In this document: in pieces, positions 10,743 to 28,405 of the stretch
How the letters are laid out: each line of letters opens with the position of its first letter
How positions within the stretch are numbered: position 1 is the stretch's first letter
From: Candidatus Saccharimonadota bacterium
GTDB taxonomy: Bacteria > Pseudomonadota > Alphaproteobacteria > CAJXXZ01 > 1604HC
Direction of reading: 5' to 3'
Assembly: GCF_008189285.1 (NCBI RefSeq)
Contig: NZ_CP043315.1
Span: 150,001 to 182,000, forward strand
Length of the DNA: 32,000 nt
The notes under the pieces: model-generated
What the model was told of the DNA's origin: nothing
Databases searched by the model: none
The model's input: only the letters and a program-made list of their open reading frames with translations
Translations under genes and position numbers: made by a program

Positions 10743-11267
10743 TTATTGCTGAACTCTGAAAGGCATTAAACCTATGTATCTAGCTCTTTTAATTGCTTGA
10801 GACAAACATCTCATTTGTTTGGCGCTAATTCCAATGATATATCTAGAAAGTATTTTACCATATGGACTTATGAATTGACTTAAATTATTTAAGAATGCAG
10901 ATTCTCCAAGCATTAGCTCAGATTTTCTTTCCTTAACTTTTCCTTCAATTCCTAGAGTTAATCTATCAAGTGGTTTGTCAAATTTATCTAGCTTTACAAT
11001 TAAATCTCTCAAGAATTTATCATTAATATCTATAAGACGTTTCATGTCTTTTAATTTCAATGGATCTAAATTGAAATCTACAACAAAATAATGAGCTCTT
11101 GCATTTCTATTCATTTCATAAGCTGTTTTAGCAAGTCCGAAGTTTCTAACTCCGCCTAACTCACCATTGTTTTCTTTAATGTATTGAACAATTTTCTCAA
11201 CATGCAATTGCGCTTCATCAGCTGAGAGATTCTGCTCTAATGCACAAACTAATCTATAATTACGCAT
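10743..11267 (-). CDS. rpsF-rpsR: fused 30S ribosomal proteins S6 and S18 in one reading frame (174 aa)
   Basis: The N-terminal part (MRNYRLV...AHYFVVDF...DKFLRDLIV) aligns with S6 (E. coli MRHYEIV...AHYVLMNV...NDAVIRSMV). The C-terminal part (GKILSRYIIGISAKQMRCLSQAIKRARYIGLMPF) aligns with S18 (E. coli [34 protein letters not shown]). There is no stop codon between them. I set the start at ATG 11267, giving the canonical MR.Y start. Confidence 0.8.
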   Translation of the reverse strand: MRNYRLVCALEQNLSADEAQLHVEKIVQYIKENNGELGGVRNFGLAKTAYEMNRNARAHYFVVDFNLDPLKLKDMKRLIDINDKFLRDLIVKLDKFDKPLDRLTLGIEGKVKERKSELMLGESAFLNNLSQFISPYGKILSRYIIGISAKQMRCLSQAIKRARYIGLMPFRVQQ

Positions 11268-11305
11268 AACCACATAATAGCTTAAATTTATGCAAAGTAG
11301 AAGGC

Positions 11306-14964: not shown

Positions 14965-15014
14965 GAGTAAATAATATCATATATGCTATTTGATTTGTAA
15001 GTATTTGAAAAATA

Positions 15015-15749
15015 GTGCATCTGGTATATAATACAAGTAAATGTGGAGGTTTTTTGAACAAGAAAATTCATAAAATTCATATAGATAATTCAATTAAAGG
15101 AATCAATTTAATTAAAGAGTCTAATTTAGATAGTAAAATTATTGGATTTAAATCTGACGAATCTGTGTATGATTTACATACTGAGATTCCTGCTGGATCT
15201 GATGTAACCCCTTTGTACAGAGAAGATCATGAGTACATACACTTTTTAAGACACGATGCAGCTCATGTTTTAGCGCAAGCTTTAACATACATGTATCCTG
15301 CTATAAAATTTGGAAAACAGTTTTTCAGGGATGAAAATGTTTTTGGATTTGATGTGCACTTAGCTGGTTATGTTTTTACTGCATCAGATTTTTCTAAGAT
15401 TGCAGAAATTATGAGAAAAGTTGTTGCAAGCAAAGATAATATTATAAAGCATATTTGGGATAAGGAAAAAGCTTTAAGTTATTTTTCAAATGATAAGTTT
15501 AAACAAGATATAATTTCTAACTCTCCAAAAGAAAAAGTGACTCTTTATGAGCATGGCGATTATATTGATATTTGTGGAGGCCCTAGAGGCTTGAATAATG
15601 ATCATGTTGGGGAACATTTTGCTTTGTTGGAAATTGAAAGTTCAACATGGATGTATGATGATGAAAAGAATATGCAACGAATTATAGGAATTTGTTTCAG
15701 AAATAAAGATGAAATGGATGCTTTTATGAAAGAAAATAACTCCAAATGA
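15015..15749 (+). CDS. stand-alone ThrRS N-terminal module (TGS-like + N2 editing domain); candidate trans-editing factor
   Basis: RHDAAHVL, YEHGDYIDICGGPRG and MQRIIGICFRNKDEMDAFMKE align with E. coli ThrRS RHSCAHLL, FHEEYVDMCRGPHV and LQRIYGTAWADKKALNAYLQ. The ORF stops where the catalytic core would begin. The ORF-track start is GTG 15015. The in-frame TTG at 15054, preceded by GGAGG at 15045-15049, is a better candidate start. Confidence 0.75.
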   Translation: MHLVYNTSKCGGFLNKKIHKIHIDNSIKGINLIKESNLDSKIIGFKSDESVYDLHTEIPAGSDVTPLYREDHEYIHFLRHDAAHVLAQALTYMYPAIKFGKQFFRDENVFGFDVHLAGYVFTASDFSKIAEIMRKVVASKDNIIKHIWDKEKALSYFSNDKFKQDIISNSPKEKVTLYEHGDYIDICGGPRGLNNDHVGEHFALLEIESSTWMYDDEKNMQRIIGICFRNKDEMDAFMKENNSK

Positions 15750-15774
15750 TTTGCTGTAGTTTGGGGTTAAAATA

Positions 15775-17646
15775 ATGATAGAAGTAAAATTAGATAATTC
15801 TATAGAGCAATTTGGATCTGGTGTTTTTGCATGCTCGATTGTTGAAGAGTTAGGAAGCAAAGCAAAAGATTTTGTTGGATTTAAATGCAATAAAACTGGA
15901 TACATTTATGATCTTCATAGCTGTTTGCGAGGTCCAGTTTCTGTGGTCCCTGTGATTAAAAATAGTCCAGATCATATGATTATATTACGCTATGATGCAG
16001 CTCATATTTTATCTGCAGCTTTGAAAAATTTACATAAATCCAAAATTGCACAAATAGAAGTTGCTGATGGAAATTTCCATATAGATTTTTATTGTGATAA
16101 AAATATTTCAGATCATGATTTTCAAGACATAGAGAATAAAATGAATGAATTAATGAAAAATAACGATAAATTCATGGTAAATTCTTATAACAAAGAACAG
16201 GCTATAGAGTTATTTGAAAACAATGAGCTGGCTATAAAGATAATTGAACGTAGCAAGGAAGAACATTTTTCTGTGCATAGCTTTGCATGTCATAATATCT
16301 TATCTGAAGATCCTGCAAGTTTGTATGCTAAAAATTTACATTTTAAGCTTTTATCAGTATCTGGATCTAGTTGGGATTATGGTTCTGAAAAATTGCAGAG
16401 AATTTATGGAACTTGCTGGAATAGTAAAGAGAAATTAAATAATCATTTAGCTGAGATTGAAGAAAATTTGAAATGGGATCATAGAATTTTAGGGAAAAAA
16501 ATGTCTATGTTTCATATAGATCCTGAGGTTGCCAGTGGAATGGTTTTCTGGCTTCCAAATGGAATGAAATCTTTAAACAATATTAAACAATATTTAAGAG
16601 AAACATGGGTTAATTACAAATATCAAGAGGTTCTAACTCCTATAGTTATGAACTCTGATTTGTGGGATAAATCTGGTCACTCAGAAATGTTTAAAGAAAA
16701 TATGATGTTTATGAATTTACAAGATAATGAGTATGCTTTAAAGCCAATGAGTTGTCCAGCTCATATCAATATTTTTAAATTAGGAAATAAGAGCTATAGG
16801 GATTTGCCTTACAAATTATCTGAATTTGGATTATGTCATAGATATGAGCCTTCTGGGTCTTTGCAAGGCTTGATGAGAGCTAGAAGCTTTACTCAAGATG
16901 ACGCTCATGTTTTTGTATCTGAAGATCAAATTGAAGAAGTTATTTTAACATTTTGTAAAATGTTGAAGGAAATTTACAAAAGATTTGGATTTGAAGATGT
17001 TCTTGTTTGTCTTGCAACAAAACCTGAAAAGCATATAGGGGATAGCGAGTCTTGGTCTAAAGCTGAGTCTGCGCTTTTGCAATCTGCTAATAAATCTGGC
17101 TTAAATTGTGAGATTAATGAAGGGGAGGGCGCATTCTATGGGCCTAAGCTAGAATTTTCTATTAAAGATAAAAAGGGACACGTATGGCAATGTGGAACAG
17201 TTCAAGTTGACTTTTCTTTGGCAAAAAGATTAGGCGCTACATATACTGATGAAGATTCTGAGAAGAGAAATCCTATCGTGATTCATCATGCTGTTTTAGG
17301 ATCTCTTGAAAGATTTCTAGGAATTTTGCTTGAGAATACCAAGGGAAGATTGCCTGATTTTGTGCATCCTCATCCTGTGGTAATTTTCCCTATTAAAGCA
17401 GAAGAGTATGCGAATGATATAAAAAGCAAAATAGAAAAAAGTGGATTATATTGTGAGATTGATAATTCAAATCAAACTTTGAGTTATAAAATTAGAAATT
17501 GGATTGATCAAAGAGTGAATTATATAATTATTGCAGGAAAGAAAGAGCAAGAAAATAATGTCATTACTTTAAGATCTACAAATGGAGAGGAAGAGAAATT
17601 GACTGTAGAAGAGTTCGTATCAAGGGTTAAGGTTTCAAATGAATAA
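15775..17646 (+). CDS. thrS: threonine--tRNA ligase (full length)
   Basis: The zinc and class II motifs KPMSCPAH, FTQDDAHVF and IHHAVLGSLERF are present, as are EGAFYGPKLEF and the C-terminal anticodon-binding domain. The N-terminal editing-domain motifs are degenerate (RYDAAH; no DxCRGPH). Confidence 0.95.
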   Translation: MIEVKLDNSIEQFGSGVFACSIVEELGSKAKDFVGFKCNKTGYIYDLHSCLRGPVSVVPVIKNSPDHMIILRYDAAHILSAALKNLHKSKIAQIEVADGNFHIDFYCDKNISDHDFQDIENKMNELMKNNDKFMVNSYNKEQAIELFENNELAIKIIERSKEEHFSVHSFACHNILSEDPASLYAKNLHFKLLSVSGSSWDYGSEKLQRIYGTCWNSKEKLNNHLAEIEENLKWDHRILGKKMSMFHIDPEVASGMVFWLPNGMKSLNNIKQYLRETWVNYKYQEVLTPIVMNSDLWDKSGHSEMFKENMMFMNLQDNEYALKPMSCPAHINIFKLGNKSYRDLPYKLSEFGLCHRYEPSGSLQGLMRARSFTQDDAHVFVSEDQIEEVILTFCKMLKEIYKRFGFEDVLVCLATKPEKHIGDSESWSKAESALLQSANKSGLNCEINEGEGAFYGPKLEFSIKDKKGHVWQCGTVQVDFSLAKRLGATYTDEDSEKRNPIVIHHAVLGSLERFLGILLENTKGRLPDFVHPHPVVIFPIKAEEYANDIKSKIEKSGLYCEIDNSNQTLSYKIRNWIDQRVNYIIIAGKKEQENNVITLRSTNGEEEKLTVEEFVSRVKVSNE

Positions 17647-18229
17647 AAATATCAAAAAGAAAGTGTTGATGAATAACAAGATTAATGCTGATAGAGTGTC
17701 AGTTATTCATGAAAAAGAACAAATGGGAACAATGTCTTTAATGTCTGCGTTAAATATGGCTGAAGACATGAGGCTAGATTTAGTTCAGGTTTCTGATGGA
17801 AATGTGCCTACTTGTAGATTGATGGATTATAAGCAATTTTTATACAAGCAAAATAAGAAGAATGCAGAAATTAAAAGAAAGTCCAAAACTTTTGAAATTA
17901 AAGAAATACAAATTAGGCCAAAAATAGGTCAACATGATATAGAAACTAAAGTAAAGCATGCTAGAAGATTTTTAGATGCTGGAAATAAAGTTAAAGTTGT
18001 ATTAAGACTAAGAGGAAGAGAAATGGCGCATGTTGAATTGAATGTTGAAAATGTTTTAAAACAATTTGCTACTTATGTTGACGATATTTCTGTAATTGAA
18101 AAAGAGCCAAAACAAGAGATGAGAAATAGAATTTTTATGACATTGAAGCCAGATCAAGCTAAAATAGATAAAAAATTAAAAGATCAAACTGAAATAGACA
18201 AAGGTCAAACTGATTCAGACAAAGAATAA
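17639..18229 (+). CDS. infC: translation initiation factor IF-3
   Basis: LDLVQVS...PTCRLMDYKQFLYKQNKK and the C-domain pattern match IF-3. It overlaps the thrS stop by 8 nt, preserving the conserved thrS-infC linkage. The exact start is uncertain (ATG 17639 or 17669). It has a K/D/Q-rich C-terminal tail. Confidence 0.88.
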   Translation: MNKNIKKKVLMNNKINADRVSVIHEKEQMGTMSLMSALNMAEDMRLDLVQVSDGNVPTCRLMDYKQFLYKQNKKNAEIKRKSKTFEIKEIQIRPKIGQHDIETKVKHARRFLDAGNKVKVVLRLRGREMAHVELNVENVLKQFATYVDDISVIEKEPKQEMRNRIFMTLKPDQAKIDKKLKDQTEIDKGQTDSDKE

Positions 18230-19989
18230 TGAATATTGCCATTCAATTTTTCCAATTAATTTTCAATTTTTCGCGAATATTTTTTTTCGCATTCAGTTTG
18301 TTTTTATTTAATACTGCAAACAAAAAATACATTGAATTGTTTAGTGGCAAAATTTATTTTGAATCAGCAAATTTAACTAATAAAGGTTTTTTAATAAATA
18401 ACATTAATGCGTTTGGTGCTAGGATTGAAAAAATCACAATTGGATTAAGTAAATTAGAGCTATATAAGCTTAATATTTTGAAATTCGATTTCAATTTTAA
18501 CGCTTATTATAAAGATGCATTTCATTTTAATGGAGATTTATTAAATAAAAAAATTAGCTTTGAATCCACAGTGCATAATGGAAAAATTACTTTAAATACA
18601 AAAGGGATTGAAAAAAGCAAATTAATTGGATTTTATACTAATGGCAATATTATTCTAGAGTTATCAAATGGTATCTTAGCTTATTCAGGCGATAAATTAA
18701 TCGCAAAATCAGATACAAAGAAATATTTTCTTCAAACAGAAATTGATTTGAAAAACAAAGAAATTAAGAAAGTTGATTTTTATTTCAAAGATAGAAAAAT
18801 AAAATTATTATTTGACGAGAAATGGGATTTTAAATCTTCAGATGAAAATTTAAATATTGCAATTAATCTTAATAAAGATTTGATAGGATCTGGAAAAATA
18901 AACATTAATAAGAAATTTGGAATACTAGACTCTGATTTGAATTTCAACATTGAGGCAAAAAATATGTCTGTGCATGCTTATGGAAATAAAAACCAATCAA
19001 TAAAAATTCAAGATTTTGACTTGTTAGAAAAAAACATTAAGTGGAATTTATACTTTAATGCTAAAAAACAAGCATTCGAATTAGATTCTGATTCAATTAA
19101 ATTGCATGCTCAATTTTTGACAAATAACATTAAGTTTAATTTTAAGTTGAATTCAAAAAAGATTGATATATCTGCATTTGGATTTATGGATTATGATAAT
19201 AATATTACTATTGAAGGAAATGGAGATTATATTTCCTTGCTTGATATGAAGTCTTTATTTAAGAGCAGTGGAAAAAATACATTGAATGGGAAATTTAAAT
19301 GGAAAAAAGCGCAATGGATTTCTGATCTATATTTGCAAGATATGAAAATTTCTTGCTATAAAAGCGCTGAAGGGTTAGAAAAATGTTCCATTGATGCTAA
19401 TTTTGAAGAAAATCCTATTGTATTGTGGAAAAACATGCTTCACGACCCTTTGTATTTTAAAGTTTGGAATTTTGCTAGAGCATTTGAGCTTATGTATGGA
19501 GATAATATGTTTAAGTCAACTGGGGTATTAGATGGAGAGATTTATGTTGGAGAAAAAGGGATGCCTTGGCATTTTACTTTGCATGATTTTGAAAGCACTC
19601 AGCAGTTTAGTGCAATTTATTTGCAAGTAATATCTTTAAAATTTTGGGCTTCATTATTTAAGCAGAATCAAAAAAAATGGGATTATTTAAGTGGAAGTGG
19701 GTATATATCAAACGATAAATATGAAATTAATGAAATTAAAATGGAGAACGATTATTTCAAAATTGATGGATCAGGATTTATTCATAGATATGAAGATTTG
19801 TTAGATATTAATGGGTTTTTAGGAACAAAATCAATTACGAGCGATCTAAAAGACCTTATGAAATCTAAAGGAAAAAGCAAAGTTGATTTTCATATTCATG
19901 GAAGTTTAAAGAATCCAATTATAGATAATAAGATTGGATTTAGAAAATTAGCCGCCCCTATGCTTCCTTTGGCATTCTTCTTGATATAA
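18229..19989 (+). CDS. membrane-anchored N/K-rich protein, possibly AsmA/TamB-like
   Basis: A 586-aa uninterrupted ORF in a stop-rich AT genome. It has an N-terminal hydrophobic anchor (IFFFAFSLFLF) and long beta-rich repetitive stretches. The C-terminal DFHIHGSLKNPIIDNK resembles the G-x-L-x-x-P motif I remember from AsmA-like proteins. Its ATG overlaps the infC TAA by 1 nt. Confidence 0.4.
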   Translation: MNIAIQFFQLIFNFSRIFFFAFSLFLFNTANKKYIELFSGKIYFESANLTNKGFLINNINAFGARIEKITIGLSKLELYKLNILKFDFNFNAYYKDAFHFNGDLLNKKISFESTVHNGKITLNTKGIEKSKLIGFYTNGNIILELSNGILAYSGDKLIAKSDTKKYFLQTEIDLKNKEIKKVDFYFKDRKIKLLFDEKWDFKSSDENLNIAINLNKDLIGSGKININKKFGILDSDLNFNIEAKNMSVHAYGNKNQSIKIQDFDLLEKNIKWNLYFNAKKQAFELDSDSIKLHAQFLTNNIKFNFKLNSKKIDISAFGFMDYDNNITIEGNGDYISLLDMKSLFKSSGKNTLNGKFKWKKAQWISDLYLQDMKISCYKSAEGLEKCSIDANFEENPIVLWKNMLHDPLYFKVWNFARAFELMYGDNMFKSTGVLDGEIYVGEKGMPWHFTLHDFESTQQFSAIYLQVISLKFWASLFKQNQKKWDYLSGSGYISNDKYEINEIKMENDYFKIDGSGFIHRYEDLLDINGFLGTKSITSDLKDLMKSKGKSKVDFHIHGSLKNPIIDNKIGFRKLAAPMLPLAFFLI

Positions 19990-26059: not shown

Positions 26060-28405
26060 ATGAGTGTTAAAAAGAAGTTTCTAGATTATTTTGCTAGTAA
26101 AAATCACTTAATTATTCCATCTTTTTCTTTGATTCCATTAAATGATCCAAGTTTGTTGTTGATAAATTCTGGAATGGCTCCTATGAAAAAGTTTTTTCTT
26201 GGACAGGCAAAGCCTCCAAGCTCTAGAATTGCCAATAGTCAGAAATGCATTAGGGCAGGTGGAAAGCATAATGATTTAGATGATGTTGGATATACAAAAA
26301 GGCATCATACTTTTTTTGAGATGTTGGGAAATTTTTCTTTTGGAGATTACGCGCATCAAGAAGCGATTGATATGGCATGGGATTTTTTGACAAATAATTT
26401 AAATTTACCTTGTGAGAAATTACATATCACTGTTCACCCAAGTGATAAAAAATCTTTAGAAATATGGAAGAAAACTCCTAATGTTATTCATGATAATATT
26501 GTTTTTGAAAAAGAAAATGAATGGAGTGCTGGAGAAGAAGGGCCATGTGGAGTTTGCACAGAAATTTTCTACGATCATGGAGGTCATATACCAGGAGATA
26601 TAACTCAAGGTGATAGATTTGTTGAAATATGGAATATGGTTTTCATGACTGACAATGTTTTTAATGGAGTAAAAACTAAATTAGACAAGCCATGCGTAGA
26701 TGCTGGAATGGGATTAGAGAGAATGGAAGCTCTTTGCAATGGAACAAATGATAATTATGAAGCTCCATTTTTTGCAAATATGATTAAATTGATTTCTAAA
26801 AATGATATCGACAACATTAATAATAGAATTGTAGCAGATCACAGTAGGTCAATTGTATTTATGATAGATGCTGGAGTTTCGCCTGATTCTGAGGGTGTGG
26901 GGTATGTGCTTCGTAAAATTATTAGGCGTGCTATAAGAAGATCTATTAATAATAATTCAATTGAAATATGCATAGATTATATTATAAACAATATGTCTAA
27001 TGATTACCCTTCTTTGTTAAAAAATCGAGAGAAAATAATAAAAGTATTTCATGATGAAAAAATGCAATTTTTGAATGTGTACAATCAAGGCATTTGTAAA
27101 TTAAATGATTATATCGATCAAGGTGAAATTGATGAAGAAAAAGTTTTTGAATTATATGACACACATGGATTCCCATATGATATATCCTTTGAAATTATGA
27201 AAGAAAAGGGAATTTCGTATGATTATGACAAATTTGAAAAAATGACAAAAAAACAAAAAGAATTTTCAAAATTGAAGAAATATCATGTAGAGAGCAAGAA
27301 TAGAATTACAGAATTTGTAGGGTATGATTGCGAAAAGATAGAAAGTAAAATTTTAGATATTCAGAAAAATGATAAAACATATATTTTGCTTGATAAAACT
27401 CCATTTTATGTTGAGTCTGGAGGGCAAAAAAGCGATTCTGGAATTATAGAAACTGACTCTGGTGTTTTTGAAGTTGAAGATATGCAGAAAAATGATCATG
27501 AAATATGGCATATTGGTAAAATCATTAAAGGGTCAATTGAATTAGGGCAGACTGTTACAGCAAAAGTGGACAATATAAAGAGAAAAGGGTTAAAGCAACA
27601 CCATACTGCTACGCATATCTTGATGTCGATTTTGAGAAAGAAGTTTGGAAATTCTGTGCTTCAAAAAGGATCTAGTGTTAAGGAAGATAGTCTAAGATTG
27701 GATTTTTCTATGAATGATCTTATTGATCAAGATAGTTTGAAAGAAACTACTATGGAAATTAATAGAGTTATACAAGATAATATCGAAATTTCAACCAATG
27801 TTACAGATTATGAATCTGCTGTGAAGCAAGGCGCTTTGATCACTGAGAAAAATTATCCAAATGAAGTTAGGGTTCTAAAAATAGGAGATATTTCTACTGA
27901 ATTATGTTGTGGAACTCATGTAAGATCAACTGGAGAAATTGGATTGTTTGCTATTAAAAGCCATAAAAGCGTTGCTTCTGGAATAAAAAGAATAGAGGCA
28001 ATTTGTGGTATGAGTGCTGTAAATTATTATTTATATTCAGAAAAGCAGGGCAAATTATCAAAGTCTGATGATGTAGAAAATAGCGCCAAATCTATTAATA
28101 GAAAAGAAATTAAAATTAGCAATCTTAATATATTGATTGAGCAATACAGCAATGCAAATGCAAAATATTTACTTGGTGAAAGTGATAAATATATTAAAAT
28201 GCATGATTTAGTTATTTTGACTAATGATAAAAATGCTATTTTAGTTAAAGTGGGAGATAAAATTGTTAAAGATGCTGCAGAAATATTGAGAAATATTGGC
28301 GGAAAAGGTGGAGGAAATAAAAATCTCGCCCAAGGAAAAATAGAAAAAATCAATTTTAACGACATTATTGATAAATTTATGAGTGAAAGTGAAGGAATGA
28401 TATGA
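26060..28405 (+). CDS. alaS: alanine--tRNA ligase (compact, 781 aa)
   Basis: Contains HHTFFEMLGNFSFGDY, the editing-domain motifs HHTATHIL and CCGTHV, and the C-terminal GGKGGGNKNLAQG. Confidence 0.95.
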   Translation: MSVKKKFLDYFASKNHLIIPSFSLIPLNDPSLLLINSGMAPMKKFFLGQAKPPSSRIANSQKCIRAGGKHNDLDDVGYTKRHHTFFEMLGNFSFGDYAHQEAIDMAWDFLTNNLNLPCEKLHITVHPSDKKSLEIWKKTPNVIHDNIVFEKENEWSAGEEGPCGVCTEIFYDHGGHIPGDITQGDRFVEIWNMVFMTDNVFNGVKTKLDKPCVDAGMGLERMEALCNGTNDNYEAPFFANMIKLISKNDIDNINNRIVADHSRSIVFMIDAGVSPDSEGVGYVLRKIIRRAIRRSINNNSIEICIDYIINNMSNDYPSLLKNREKIIKVFHDEKMQFLNVYNQGICKLNDYIDQGEIDEEKVFELYDTHGFPYDISFEIMKEKGISYDYDKFEKMTKKQKEFSKLKKYHVESKNRITEFVGYDCEKIESKILDIQKNDKTYILLDKTPFYVESGGQKSDSGIIETDSGVFEVEDMQKNDHEIWHIGKIIKGSIELGQTVTAKVDNIKRKGLKQHHTATHILMSILRKKFGNSVLQKGSSVKEDSLRLDFSMNDLIDQDSLKETTMEINRVIQDNIEISTNVTDYESAVKQGALITEKNYPNEVRVLKIGDISTELCCGTHVRSTGEIGLFAIKSHKSVASGIKRIEAICGMSAVNYYLYSEKQGKLSKSDDVENSAKSINRKEIKISNLNILIEQYSNANAKYLLGESDKYIKMHDLVILTNDKNAILVKVGDKIVKDAAEILRNIGGKGGGNKNLAQGKIEKINFNDIIDKFMSESEGMI

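Follow-up and report, generated by a model that had tools for sequence, protein, structure and literature searches.

A stand-alone ThrRS N1-N2 module next to a full-length thrS with a degenerate editing pocket: a putative trans-editing pair in Cytomitobacter and Nesciobacter

Introduction

Threonyl-tRNA synthetase (ThrRS) relies on a zinc site that is unable to exclude serine and consequently makes Ser-tRNA(Thr) (PMC4787780, PMC11295145). Can the charging and proofreading of one bacterial ThrRS be divided between two adjacent genes? This question is raised by a locus of Candidatus Cytomitobacter indipagum, an endosymbiont of marine diplonemid protists with a genome of ~0.63 Mb. The window, i.e., the whole stretch of DNA analysed here, comprises 32,000 nt of contig NZ_CP043315.1 (positions 150,001 to 182,000, forward strand; G+C ~29%). 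An earlier note on this window, made from the sequence alone, described two ThrRS-related open reading frames (ORFs) in tandem on the same strand and 25 nt apart, which was borne out: ORF A extends from 15015 (GTG) or 15054 (TTG) to 15749 and thrS (ORF B) from 15775 to 17646, both on the + strand. The ORF A protein is 100% identical to the NCBI entry 'hypothetical protein FZC35_00705' of Candidatus Cytomitobacter indipagum. We consider it probable, from sequence and comparative evidence, that this protein (A) deacylates Ser-tRNA(Thr) in trans and thereby makes up for the dead cis editing site of the neighbouring ThrRS (B). Domain identity, fold, the conservation and decay of residues, synteny, purifying selection and signals of paralogy are results of the analysis presented below.

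A free-standing ThrRS N-terminal module

ORF A (15054..15749, +; 231 aa from the TTG, 244 aa from GTG 15015) encodes a stand-alone paralogue of the ThrRS N1(TGS)-N2 editing module, a putative trans Ser-tRNA(Thr) deacylase. Its product and the N-terminal module of B (N-module, first ~230 residues) are 26% identical along an alignment of 231 aa (E 3e-22), in agreement with the earlier view that it is not a fresh duplicate. Among solved ThrRS N-modules, it matches residues 36-232 of S. aureus 1nyq (E 1e-20), residues 56-234 of E. coli 1qf6 (E 1e-13) and 1tje (E 1e-12), and its C-terminus falls where the linker helix starts. The NCBIfam thrS model TIGR00418 matches A over profile positions 1-166 only (E 3e-20) and B from end to end with 545 bits (cut-off 384), as expected from the previous reading of A as an N-module only and of B as a complete ThrRS with intact motifs. 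The 623-aa product of ORF B (15775..17646, +) contains an intact class II core (Pfam tRNA-synt_2b, aa 317-521), an anticodon-binding domain (HGTP_anticodon, aa 535-619) and the catalytic and Zn-ligand motifs MSCPAH, QDDAHVF and HHAVLGSLERF. No Pfam match to TGS or tRNA_SAD was found in B, and precomputed matches to these two domains are absent in B-family proteins while present in all other near relatives. Since Pfam is nearly silent on the N-modules of both A and B, it is uninformative for homology here, and we used NCBIfam, a sequence search of the PDB and a fold search instead. Judged by the NCBIfam thrS match and the PDB ThrRS match (E 3e-20 and E 1e-20), the homology of A to ThrRS N-modules is secure.

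The fold search leads to the same family. An AlphaFold2 model of A, built with an 8-member family alignment, reached a predicted local distance difference test (pLDDT) of 91.9 and a predicted template modelling score (pTM) of 0.88, and its top PDB matches in Foldseek were the ThrRS N-modules 6vu9, 1tje, 1nyq and 1qf6 (template modelling score normalised on the query, TMq, 0.80-0.86; E ~1e-16; 215-230 aligned columns). These values bear out the proposal that A is built from the bacterial N2 fold. When normalised on the target, the closest match was 1tje (TMt 0.82). The N-module of B (aa 1-228; 15775..16458, +) was modelled with a pLDDT of 88.6 and matched ThrRS N-modules with a TMq of 0.81; it keeps the N1-N2 fold around a decayed editing pocket. 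As both models are confident and match ThrRS structures, A and the N-module of B each carry a complete N1(TGS)-N2 module. Mitoribosomal mL39 chains form the second structural class matched by A (TMq ~0.7, E 1e-11 to 1e-12), and the editing domains of AlaRS together with AlaX come third (TMq 0.4-0.57).

Other families of editing factors describe A less well. It is not a member of the AlaX family, as it scores 24.6 bits (E 1.8e-05) against the NCBIfam AlaXM model, for which the cut-off is 300. Nor is it of the archaeal ThrRS-ed type, its fold being N1-N2, no HGTP_anticodon match being found in A with Pfam and the NCBIfam Ser-tRNA(Thr) hydrolase model NF011500 giving no match. A does fit the class of free-standing trans-editing factors: it has its own Shine-Dalgarno (SD) sequence, start and stop, lies in a frame other than that of thrS and is a separate gene in 8/8 loci.

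The editing pocket in A and B

We compared ten pocket positions (73, 77, 104, 156, 173, 180, 182, 184, 185 and 186, E. coli numbering) in an alignment of eight A proteins and as many B N-modules, together with the fragments from E. coli and S. aureus. The B copy of contig L007 ends at the contig end and has no residue at positions 184-186, hence n=7 there. All eight A orthologues have HHFKYDCGPR at these ten positions, apart from E180 in a single one. The RHDAAH motif of A (15249..15266, +) corresponds to E. coli R72-H77 and provides H73 and H77 as His67 and His71, both invariant in 8/8; Lys150 (15501..15503, +) corresponds to K156; and DICGGPR (15567..15587, +), whose C, G, P and R occur in 8/8, is the counterpart of E. 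coli D180-M-C182-R-G-P-H186. Both motifs are thus present as the earlier note had stated, but the note did not flag that His186 has become Arg in the second one.

The same note considered the editing site of B degenerate, with RYDAAH as the first motif and nothing like DxCRGPH downstream, and the alignment confirms this in the window genome and in all 8 orthologues. H73 is Tyr in the RYDAAH of B (15988..16005, +), an aligned pocket position; the sequence at the motif-equivalent site reads ...VHSFACHNILSEDP..., and the segment VHSFACHNILSEDPA (16273..16317, +), equivalent to E. coli Y173...D180-x-C182-x-G-P-H186, keeps none of the catalytic residues. Taken together, B of the window genome has Y, H, A, H, I, S and A at positions 73, 77, 156, 173, 180, 182 and 186, respectively. 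Across the orthologues, the His found in all eight A proteins at position 73 is replaced in B by the series Y,Q,Y,N,H,N,H,H, and the equally invariant His77 by H,N,H,H,N,Y,H,N. Position 104, a Tyr in E. coli, is Phe in 8/8 A and I, L or V in B. Lys156 is invariant in A and replaced by A or I in 8/8 B, Tyr173 (8/8 in A) by H or C, and Asp180 (7/8 in A, Glu in 1) by I, V or L. Cys182, present in 8/8 A, gives way to S,C,L,A,S,S,M,S. Gly184 and Pro185, both 8/8 in A, persist in 5/7 B copies each (the others having D and K, and A and S, respectively), while position 186 is Arg in 8/8 A and in five B copies, the others having A and C. Individual B orthologues therefore retain 2-4 of the 10 positions, with substitutes that vary between orthologues; K156, Y173 and D180 are gone in 8/8 and C182 in 7/8.

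Related enzymes, in contrast, mostly keep the pocket. The full HHYKYDCGPH set occurs in 106/112 of the nearest ThrRSs outside the clade (Rickettsia, Pelagibacterales and other Alphaproteobacteria), and in a second background of 148 diverse N-modules from an exhaustive profile search each pocket position is 95-100% conserved, with Arg186 in none. Over these 260 other ThrRS N-modules, position 186 is H in 256 and R in 0. An internal control is provided by the AlaRS encoded in the window (26060-28405), which has retained both HxxxH and CxGxH and matches tRNA_SAD strongly; editing sites are therefore not generally decaying in this genome. In E. coli, the H73A substitution lowers the kcat of editing 7000-fold and C182 is critical (PMC4041444). 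The editing pocket of B is therefore destroyed, and that of A is preserved but for a single fixed and lineage-specific substitution of Arg for His in CxGxH.

One could argue that B still edits in cis through a remodelled pocket, which would make A redundant or supplementary. The N-module of B indeed keeps its fold and is not evolving neutrally, and single residues survive in some orthologues (both His in L006, C182 in Nesciobacter). Yet at no pocket position do the B orthologues share a conserved substitute, which indicates that selection does not maintain another set of catalytic residues; all eight have lost K156, Y173 and D180, and conservation within B is lowest in N2 (39% identity). We regard cis editing by B as very unlikely.

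The pocket also bears on whether A is an enzyme at all. A could be a non-catalytic RNA- or protein-binding factor built on the N1-N2 fold, either ribosome-associated like mL39 or an accessory subunit of tRNA(Thr) or ThrRS, in which the 'catalytic' residues would serve binding. The structural rank of mL39, next after ThrRS, is consistent with this idea and indicates that the fold was recruited earlier as a stand-alone non-synthetase protein; moreover, H186R removes a residue important for kcat, which H186A lowers 70-fold in the E. coli enzyme (PMC4041444). Against it, the joint invariance of H73, H77, K156, Y173, D180 and C182 among the A proteins is what a working hydrolytic pocket predicts. 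A shares only ~15% identity with mL39, and in Foldseek mL39 matches the N-module of B as well as it does A, so that the likeness reflects the general fold only. A purely binding role is, in our estimation, quite improbable.

Distribution and selection

A word-index search returned eight A homologues with 46-100% identity; the set includes Ca. C. primus, Ca. Nesciobacter abundans, an alphaproteobacterial metagenome-assembled genome (MAG), two circular MAG chromosomes of ~620 kb and two short contigs. An exhaustive profile search of 1.8 billion representatives gave 387 and 361 bits for two A-family representatives before dropping to 144 bits, the level of ThrRSs generally, and a scan of GTDB species representatives detected the family in five species only. 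The gene order UDG<- iscA<- | A-> thrS-> infC-> is kept in 8/8 loci with an A homologue, representing at least 6 species-level genomes. The survey of related genomes suggested by the earlier note thus recovered the A-thrS pair in all 8 genomes or contigs, in the same order. The genomes that retain A measure about 0.56-0.63 Mb and are under strong deletion pressure.

The earlier note also held that A is maintained. This agrees with the presence of the same locus in the 8 genomes or contigs, with reading frames that are intact in 8/8 and devoid of frameshifts, and with nonsynonymous divergence (dN) far below synonymous divergence (dS). Mean dN is 0.39 for A, 0.48 for the N-module of B and 0.26 for the core of B, all far below a saturated dS (proportion of synonymous differences, pS, 0.6-0.8). 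For the dN/dS estimate proposed previously, the saturation leaves omega only rough. Because of this saturation, we replaced dN/dS by a comparison of N-module and core identities calibrated on 112 ordinary ThrRSs. Mean identity is 0.54 for A, 0.46 for the B N-module and 0.65 for the B core; at a core identity of 0.65, pairs of ordinary alphaproteobacterial ThrRSs predict a normal N-module identity of 0.60 (residual sd 0.06). A is thus under tighter constraint than the N-module of B. Conservation of the two domains is reciprocal: N2 identity is 0.60 in A vs 0.39 in B, and N1/TGS identity is 0.44 in A vs 0.61 in B. This pattern fits the prediction of subfunctionalisation and rules out A as a decaying relic.

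The view that A is a functionless, decaying remnant of a duplicated thrS could draw on its 'hypothetical' label at NCBI, its weak Pfam signal and its TTG start. It is contradicted by frames that remain open in every locus despite saturated dS, by a rate near that of a normal N-module (0.54 vs 0.60 expected) and slower than that of the B N-module, by the invariance of the pocket residues and the conserved arrangement of SD and start, and by the retention of A in genomes as small as these. The comparative data make a remnant extremely unlikely, and this reading is strongly disfavoured.

Two side observations concern thrS itself. In L006 (4677-6612, on an 11-kb contig with 2x coverage), thrS was called as two pieces of 449 aa and 128 aa, which is probably an assembly frameshift and not a real split. 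A 385-aa fragment with 61% identity to B (P0215, a TRINITY transcript of EukProt) comes from the transcriptome assembly of a eukaryote; host RNA-seq consequently captures transcripts of endosymbiont thrS.

Origin of the gene pair

Neighbour-joining (NJ) analysis of 204 columns recovered A and B each as monophyletic with 100% bootstrap, and A plus B were split from all other N-modules with 87% bootstrap in an unrooted tree. Since the tree resolves into three clades, namely A, B and 'all others', an unrooted NJ tree is unable to prove the sisterhood of A and B, and we relied on shared derived characters. A and B have in common R186 (0% of others; 0/260), D74 (9%) and P59 (12%), and they share a shortened loop ahead of the LQRI motif. 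Shared derived characters such as R186 suggest that A and B are old paralogues that subsequently subfunctionalised. In the simplest history, thrS or its 5' third would have been duplicated in tandem in the common ancestor of the Cytomitobacter/Nesciobacter clade, after fixation of H186R. Complementary losses would have followed, the upstream copy losing its catalytic core (if it was ever present) and the downstream copy its editing pocket.

A predicted trans-editing mechanism

How would the two proteins share the work? B has lost its pocket but kept the fold and a well-conserved N1/TGS domain, which suggests that it charges tRNA(Thr) without proofreading it in cis. The free-standing A, which keeps the N2 hydrolytic pocket, would capture mis-serylated tRNA(Thr) released by ThrRS and hydrolyse the ester bond with the usual N2 machinery: H73 and K156 would position waters, D180 would read the seryl moiety and C182 would contact the 2'-OH of A76. 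From the results above we infer that A is enzymatically active, that B has lost the editing activity, that editing proceeds in trans and that Ser-tRNA(Ser) is spared.

Several points weigh against this trans-editing scheme. A stays below Pfam gathering thresholds, with 17 bits for tRNA_SAD (PF07973; cut-off 24) and no match to TGS (PF02824). It departs from the CxGxH motif (C182-x-G184-x-H186), described as invariant (PMC12003907): A reads C-G-G-P-R, in which Cys, Gly and Pro are invariant and the His is Arg in 8/8. Without this near-invariant His, its activity could be weak or altered. A is also devoid of an anticodon-binding domain, so that the sparing of Ser-tRNA(Ser) would have to come about otherwise; candidate explanations are readout of the discriminator base or acceptor stem, protection by EF-Tu, low expression from the conserved TTG start, or docking to ThrRS. 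Furthermore, loss of ThrRS editing is tolerated by Mycoplasma-like reduced genomes according to work cited in PMC4041444, so a genome of this kind could do without it. With respect to selection and origin, saturation of the synonymous sites (pS 0.6-0.8) makes omega a rough upper-bound indicator only, and the sister grouping of A and B could be long-branch attraction, both branches being long.

The Arg substitution has a possible reading of its own. H186 takes part in activating C182 for oxidation and belongs to a putative metal site with an inhibitory role (PMC4041444, PMC12003907); Arg186 in A and in B orthologues may for this reason change redox or zinc sensitivity. The invariant H186R of A might even relieve the editing cysteine of inhibition by metal or of its sensitivity to oxidants. 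Arg186 might stand in for the His in stabilising the C182 thiolate.

If A is an active aminoacyl-tRNA deacylase, its substrate range could also be shifted or broader than that of a dedicated Ser-tRNA(Thr) editor, covering Ser-, Gly- and Ala-tRNA generally (as in AlaX-S) or other mischarged species, the latter in a genome from which other editing factors have been lost. Without an anticodon-binding domain its tRNA specificity is unconstrained, the pocket carries the lineage-specific changes H186R and Y104F, A is weakly similar to AlaXM (NCBIfam E 1.8e-05) and to AlaX folds, and relaxed tRNA specificity has been reported for the N2 domain (PMC11295145). However, A is far nearer to ThrRS N-modules than to AlaX, both in structure (TM 0.80-0.86 vs 0.4-0.57) and in identity over the fold search (22-26% vs 12-17%); the ThrRS-specific residues K156, Y173 and D180 are retained in A; the gene is strictly linked to thrS in every genome; and AlaRS retains a cis editing site of its own. 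A broad-range deacylase is therefore unlikely in our view, and a Ser-tRNA(Thr) editor acting in trans remains the function that we favour for A.

Relation to known editing systems

Trans-editing by a free-standing homologue of an aminoacyl-tRNA synthetase editing domain is already known. A 2024 review lists AlaXp, the INS superfamily (INS/ProX), DTD/ATD and archaeal ThrRS-ed as free-standing factors; a bacterial N2 type is absent from it (PMC11295145). No description of the A/B arrangement was found in the searchable full-text literature, and the preprint on the Cytomitobacter genome mentions neither thrS nor editing nor synthetases. The claim that the arrangement is undescribed in bacteria stands to that extent; stand-alone TGS+tRNA_SAD proteins are nevertheless not unique to this clade (see below). 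The novelty of this locus lies in a specific and conserved pair, an intact free N1-N2 module and a full-length ThrRS that appears dead in cis, and in the reciprocal decay of the two.

The crenarchaeal pair of ThrRS-cat and ThrRS-ed (Korencic et al. 2004, as presented in PMC11295145 and PMC4787780) resembles A/B in that charging and Ser-tRNA(Thr) proofreading reside on two polypeptides and editing occurs in trans. Archaeal ThrRS-ed, however, has a DTD-like fold and its own anticodon-binding domain (PMC11295145), while A has the bacterial N1-N2 fold and no such domain; and unlike in the crenarchaeal split, B still carries an apparently dead copy of the editing module. Closer in fold is the T1/T2 pair of Anabaena (Rubio et al. 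2015, PMC4787780), in which a bacterial ThrRS with a degenerate N2 is served in trans by a paralogue with a bacterial-type N2; A acting for B would parallel apo-T1 acting for T2 (PMC4787780). T1 and T2 are both full-length synthetases, whereas the editing partner here is N1-N2 only. T2 keeps HxxxH and DxCRGPH and is impaired by an insertion (PMC4787780), whereas the pocket residues of B are gone, and the Anabaena pair is conditional on zinc limitation, whereas the A/B arrangement is constitutive and syntenic.

Like A, the AlaX proteins (AlaXp-S/M/L) are free-standing members of the ThrRS/AlaRS editing-domain superfamily; they carry HxxxH and CxGxH and act in trans on Ser-mischarged tRNA (PMC11295145, PMC12003907). 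A differs in being of the ThrRS type, with TGS, K156, Y173 and D180, and in having no fourth Zn ligand (H186R). The same two domains make up the E. coli ThrRS N1-N2 fragment (PDB 1tje/1tke/1tkg/1tky; 'EcN1+N2', PMC12003907), of 224 aa vs 231 aa in A, which is stable, folds independently and has been used experimentally (PDB 1tje; PMC12003907). This fragment is a laboratory truncation with H186 and Y104; A is a natural gene with R and F at these positions. In Mycoplasma, too, a reduced genome encodes a ThrRS that is naturally defective in editing, with a degenerated editing site as in B (Li et al. 2011, cited in PMC4041444 and PMC4787780). Mistranslation is tolerated in that case and no stand-alone N2 paralogue is reported to compensate for it, while here a conserved intact copy adjoins thrS. 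As for mL39 (MRPL39), it is like A a stand-alone protein with a ThrRS N1-N2-like fold, although a eukaryotic ribosomal one. We know of no evidence for a catalytic function in mL39 or for an association of A with ribosomes, and no literature tying mL39/MRPL39 to ThrRS was found among the papers searched.

The A/B locus would represent a natural and testable partition of the charging and proofreading of one synthetase between paralogues. It combines a reciprocal decay of domains, N2 being kept in A and N1 in B, with ~0.6 Mb genomes that normally purge duplicates. Given that Mycoplasma lost editing, the pair bears on how indispensable ThrRS editing is in endosymbionts. A alone bears on the way N2 selects tRNA(Thr) when no anticodon-binding domain is attached, and its fixed Arg on the role of the supposedly invariant CxGxH histidine. 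Finally, the locus supplies a name under which a group of proteins labelled 'hypothetical / TGS domain-containing' could be annotated.

Other stand-alone N1-N2 proteins

Stand-alone TGS+tRNA_SAD proteins unrelated to the A of this clade occur in other bacteria. P0157, a 246-aa stand-alone TGS+tRNA_SAD protein with intact HxxxH, K156 and CxGPH, was found in JGI metagenomes 3300024272 and 3300024268 (L008 5001-5741, L009 5001-5741); it occurs on at least 24 contigs of up to 558 kb. Its gene lies directly 5' of infC-rpmI-rplT, the usual slot of thrS, with no catalytic domain adjacent. P0169, a homologue with 72% identity, belongs to a 'Clostridia bacterium' MAG, where it bears the label hypothetical; no catalytic ThrRS could be located in the Clostridia MAG that encodes this P0157-type protein. 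A second cluster, P0160/P0079 from Tara Oceans (L010 5001-5720, L011 2653-3372), groups 11 members, all of 239 aa, which are stand-alone TGS+tRNA_SAD proteins and stop where the linker helix lies. This cluster has Ala in place of D180, and no thrS is found near its loci, which are flanked by genes for TGT, YajC, CsrA and a sulfatase. Many further short N1N2-like matches of the exhaustive search were not counted as stand-alone, as they stem from ThrRS genes that are cut off at a contig end or frameshifted, their tails continuing into the DHRKLG linker.

It is conceivable, and we put this forward only tentatively, that free-standing bacterial N1-N2 proteins form an unrecognised class of trans-editing factors for ThrRS, which could be called 'ThrX' by analogy with AlaX. 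Such a class would have several origins, and in Cytomitobacter and Nesciobacter its member would have become an obligate proofreading partner through reciprocal decay, by constructive neutral evolution in a shrinking genome. The Clostridia proteins P0157/P0169, in the slot of thrS, and the P0079/P0160 cluster of marine bacteria, which stands alone, would be further members.

Two ThrRS-like proteins, P0028 and P0125, consist of N2 only, without TGS, and end in C-terminal tails that are acidic, Pro/Glu-rich linkers; the tail of P0028 finishes with a hydrophobic, anchor-like segment. They may represent a further stand-alone N2 architecture.

Gene context

Between the two starts considered in the earlier note, the TTG at 15054 is favoured. 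A Shine-Dalgarno sequence, GGAGG (15045..15049, +), can be read 4 nt 5' of this TTG, and GGAGG-N4-TTG is kept in the Nesciobacter, C. primus, L005, L006 and L002 loci, i.e., in at least 5 orthologous loci. The GTG at 15015 was rejected, since it overlaps a promoter-like site while the conserved GGAGG-N4 precedes the TTG. From this context TTG 15054 is most likely the start of ORF A. The promoter-like site itself, TTGAAA-16 nt-TATAAT (15005..15032, +), lies 5' of ORF A and has the top score of the region with 11/12 matches; it is merely suggestive, as the total number of such sites does not exceed the expectation from shuffling.

The 25-nt spacer between A and thrS (15750..15774, +) contains an SD-like GGGG at 15764-15767. 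Its length varies from -4 to +39 nt across orthologues, stop and start codons overlapping in two genomes. No terminator was found between A, thrS and infC; its absence from the spacer implies co-transcription, so that A-thrS-infC would be transcribed as one unit. A fusion of A and B by read-through or frameshifting was considered and rejected: the frames differ, the spacer is variable and a TAA soon follows the TGA of A. Regulatory RNAs and tRNAs were looked for near the A-thrS locus and none was found. The last gene of the conserved unit, infC (IF-3; 17639..18229, +), overlaps the thrS stop by 8 nt.

A 586-aa ORF without Pfam match directly follows infC (18229-19989, +), and a gene of 506-727 aa fills this slot in all related loci; rpmI-rplT, the usual partners of infC, are not found at this position in the window. 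Elsewhere in the window, a single 176-aa ORF on the - strand (10743-11273) combines a match to Ribosomal_S6 (aa 5-94, E 5.5e-18) with one to Ribosomal_S18 (aa 130-170, E 3.5e-14), and looks like a fusion of rpsF and rpsR.

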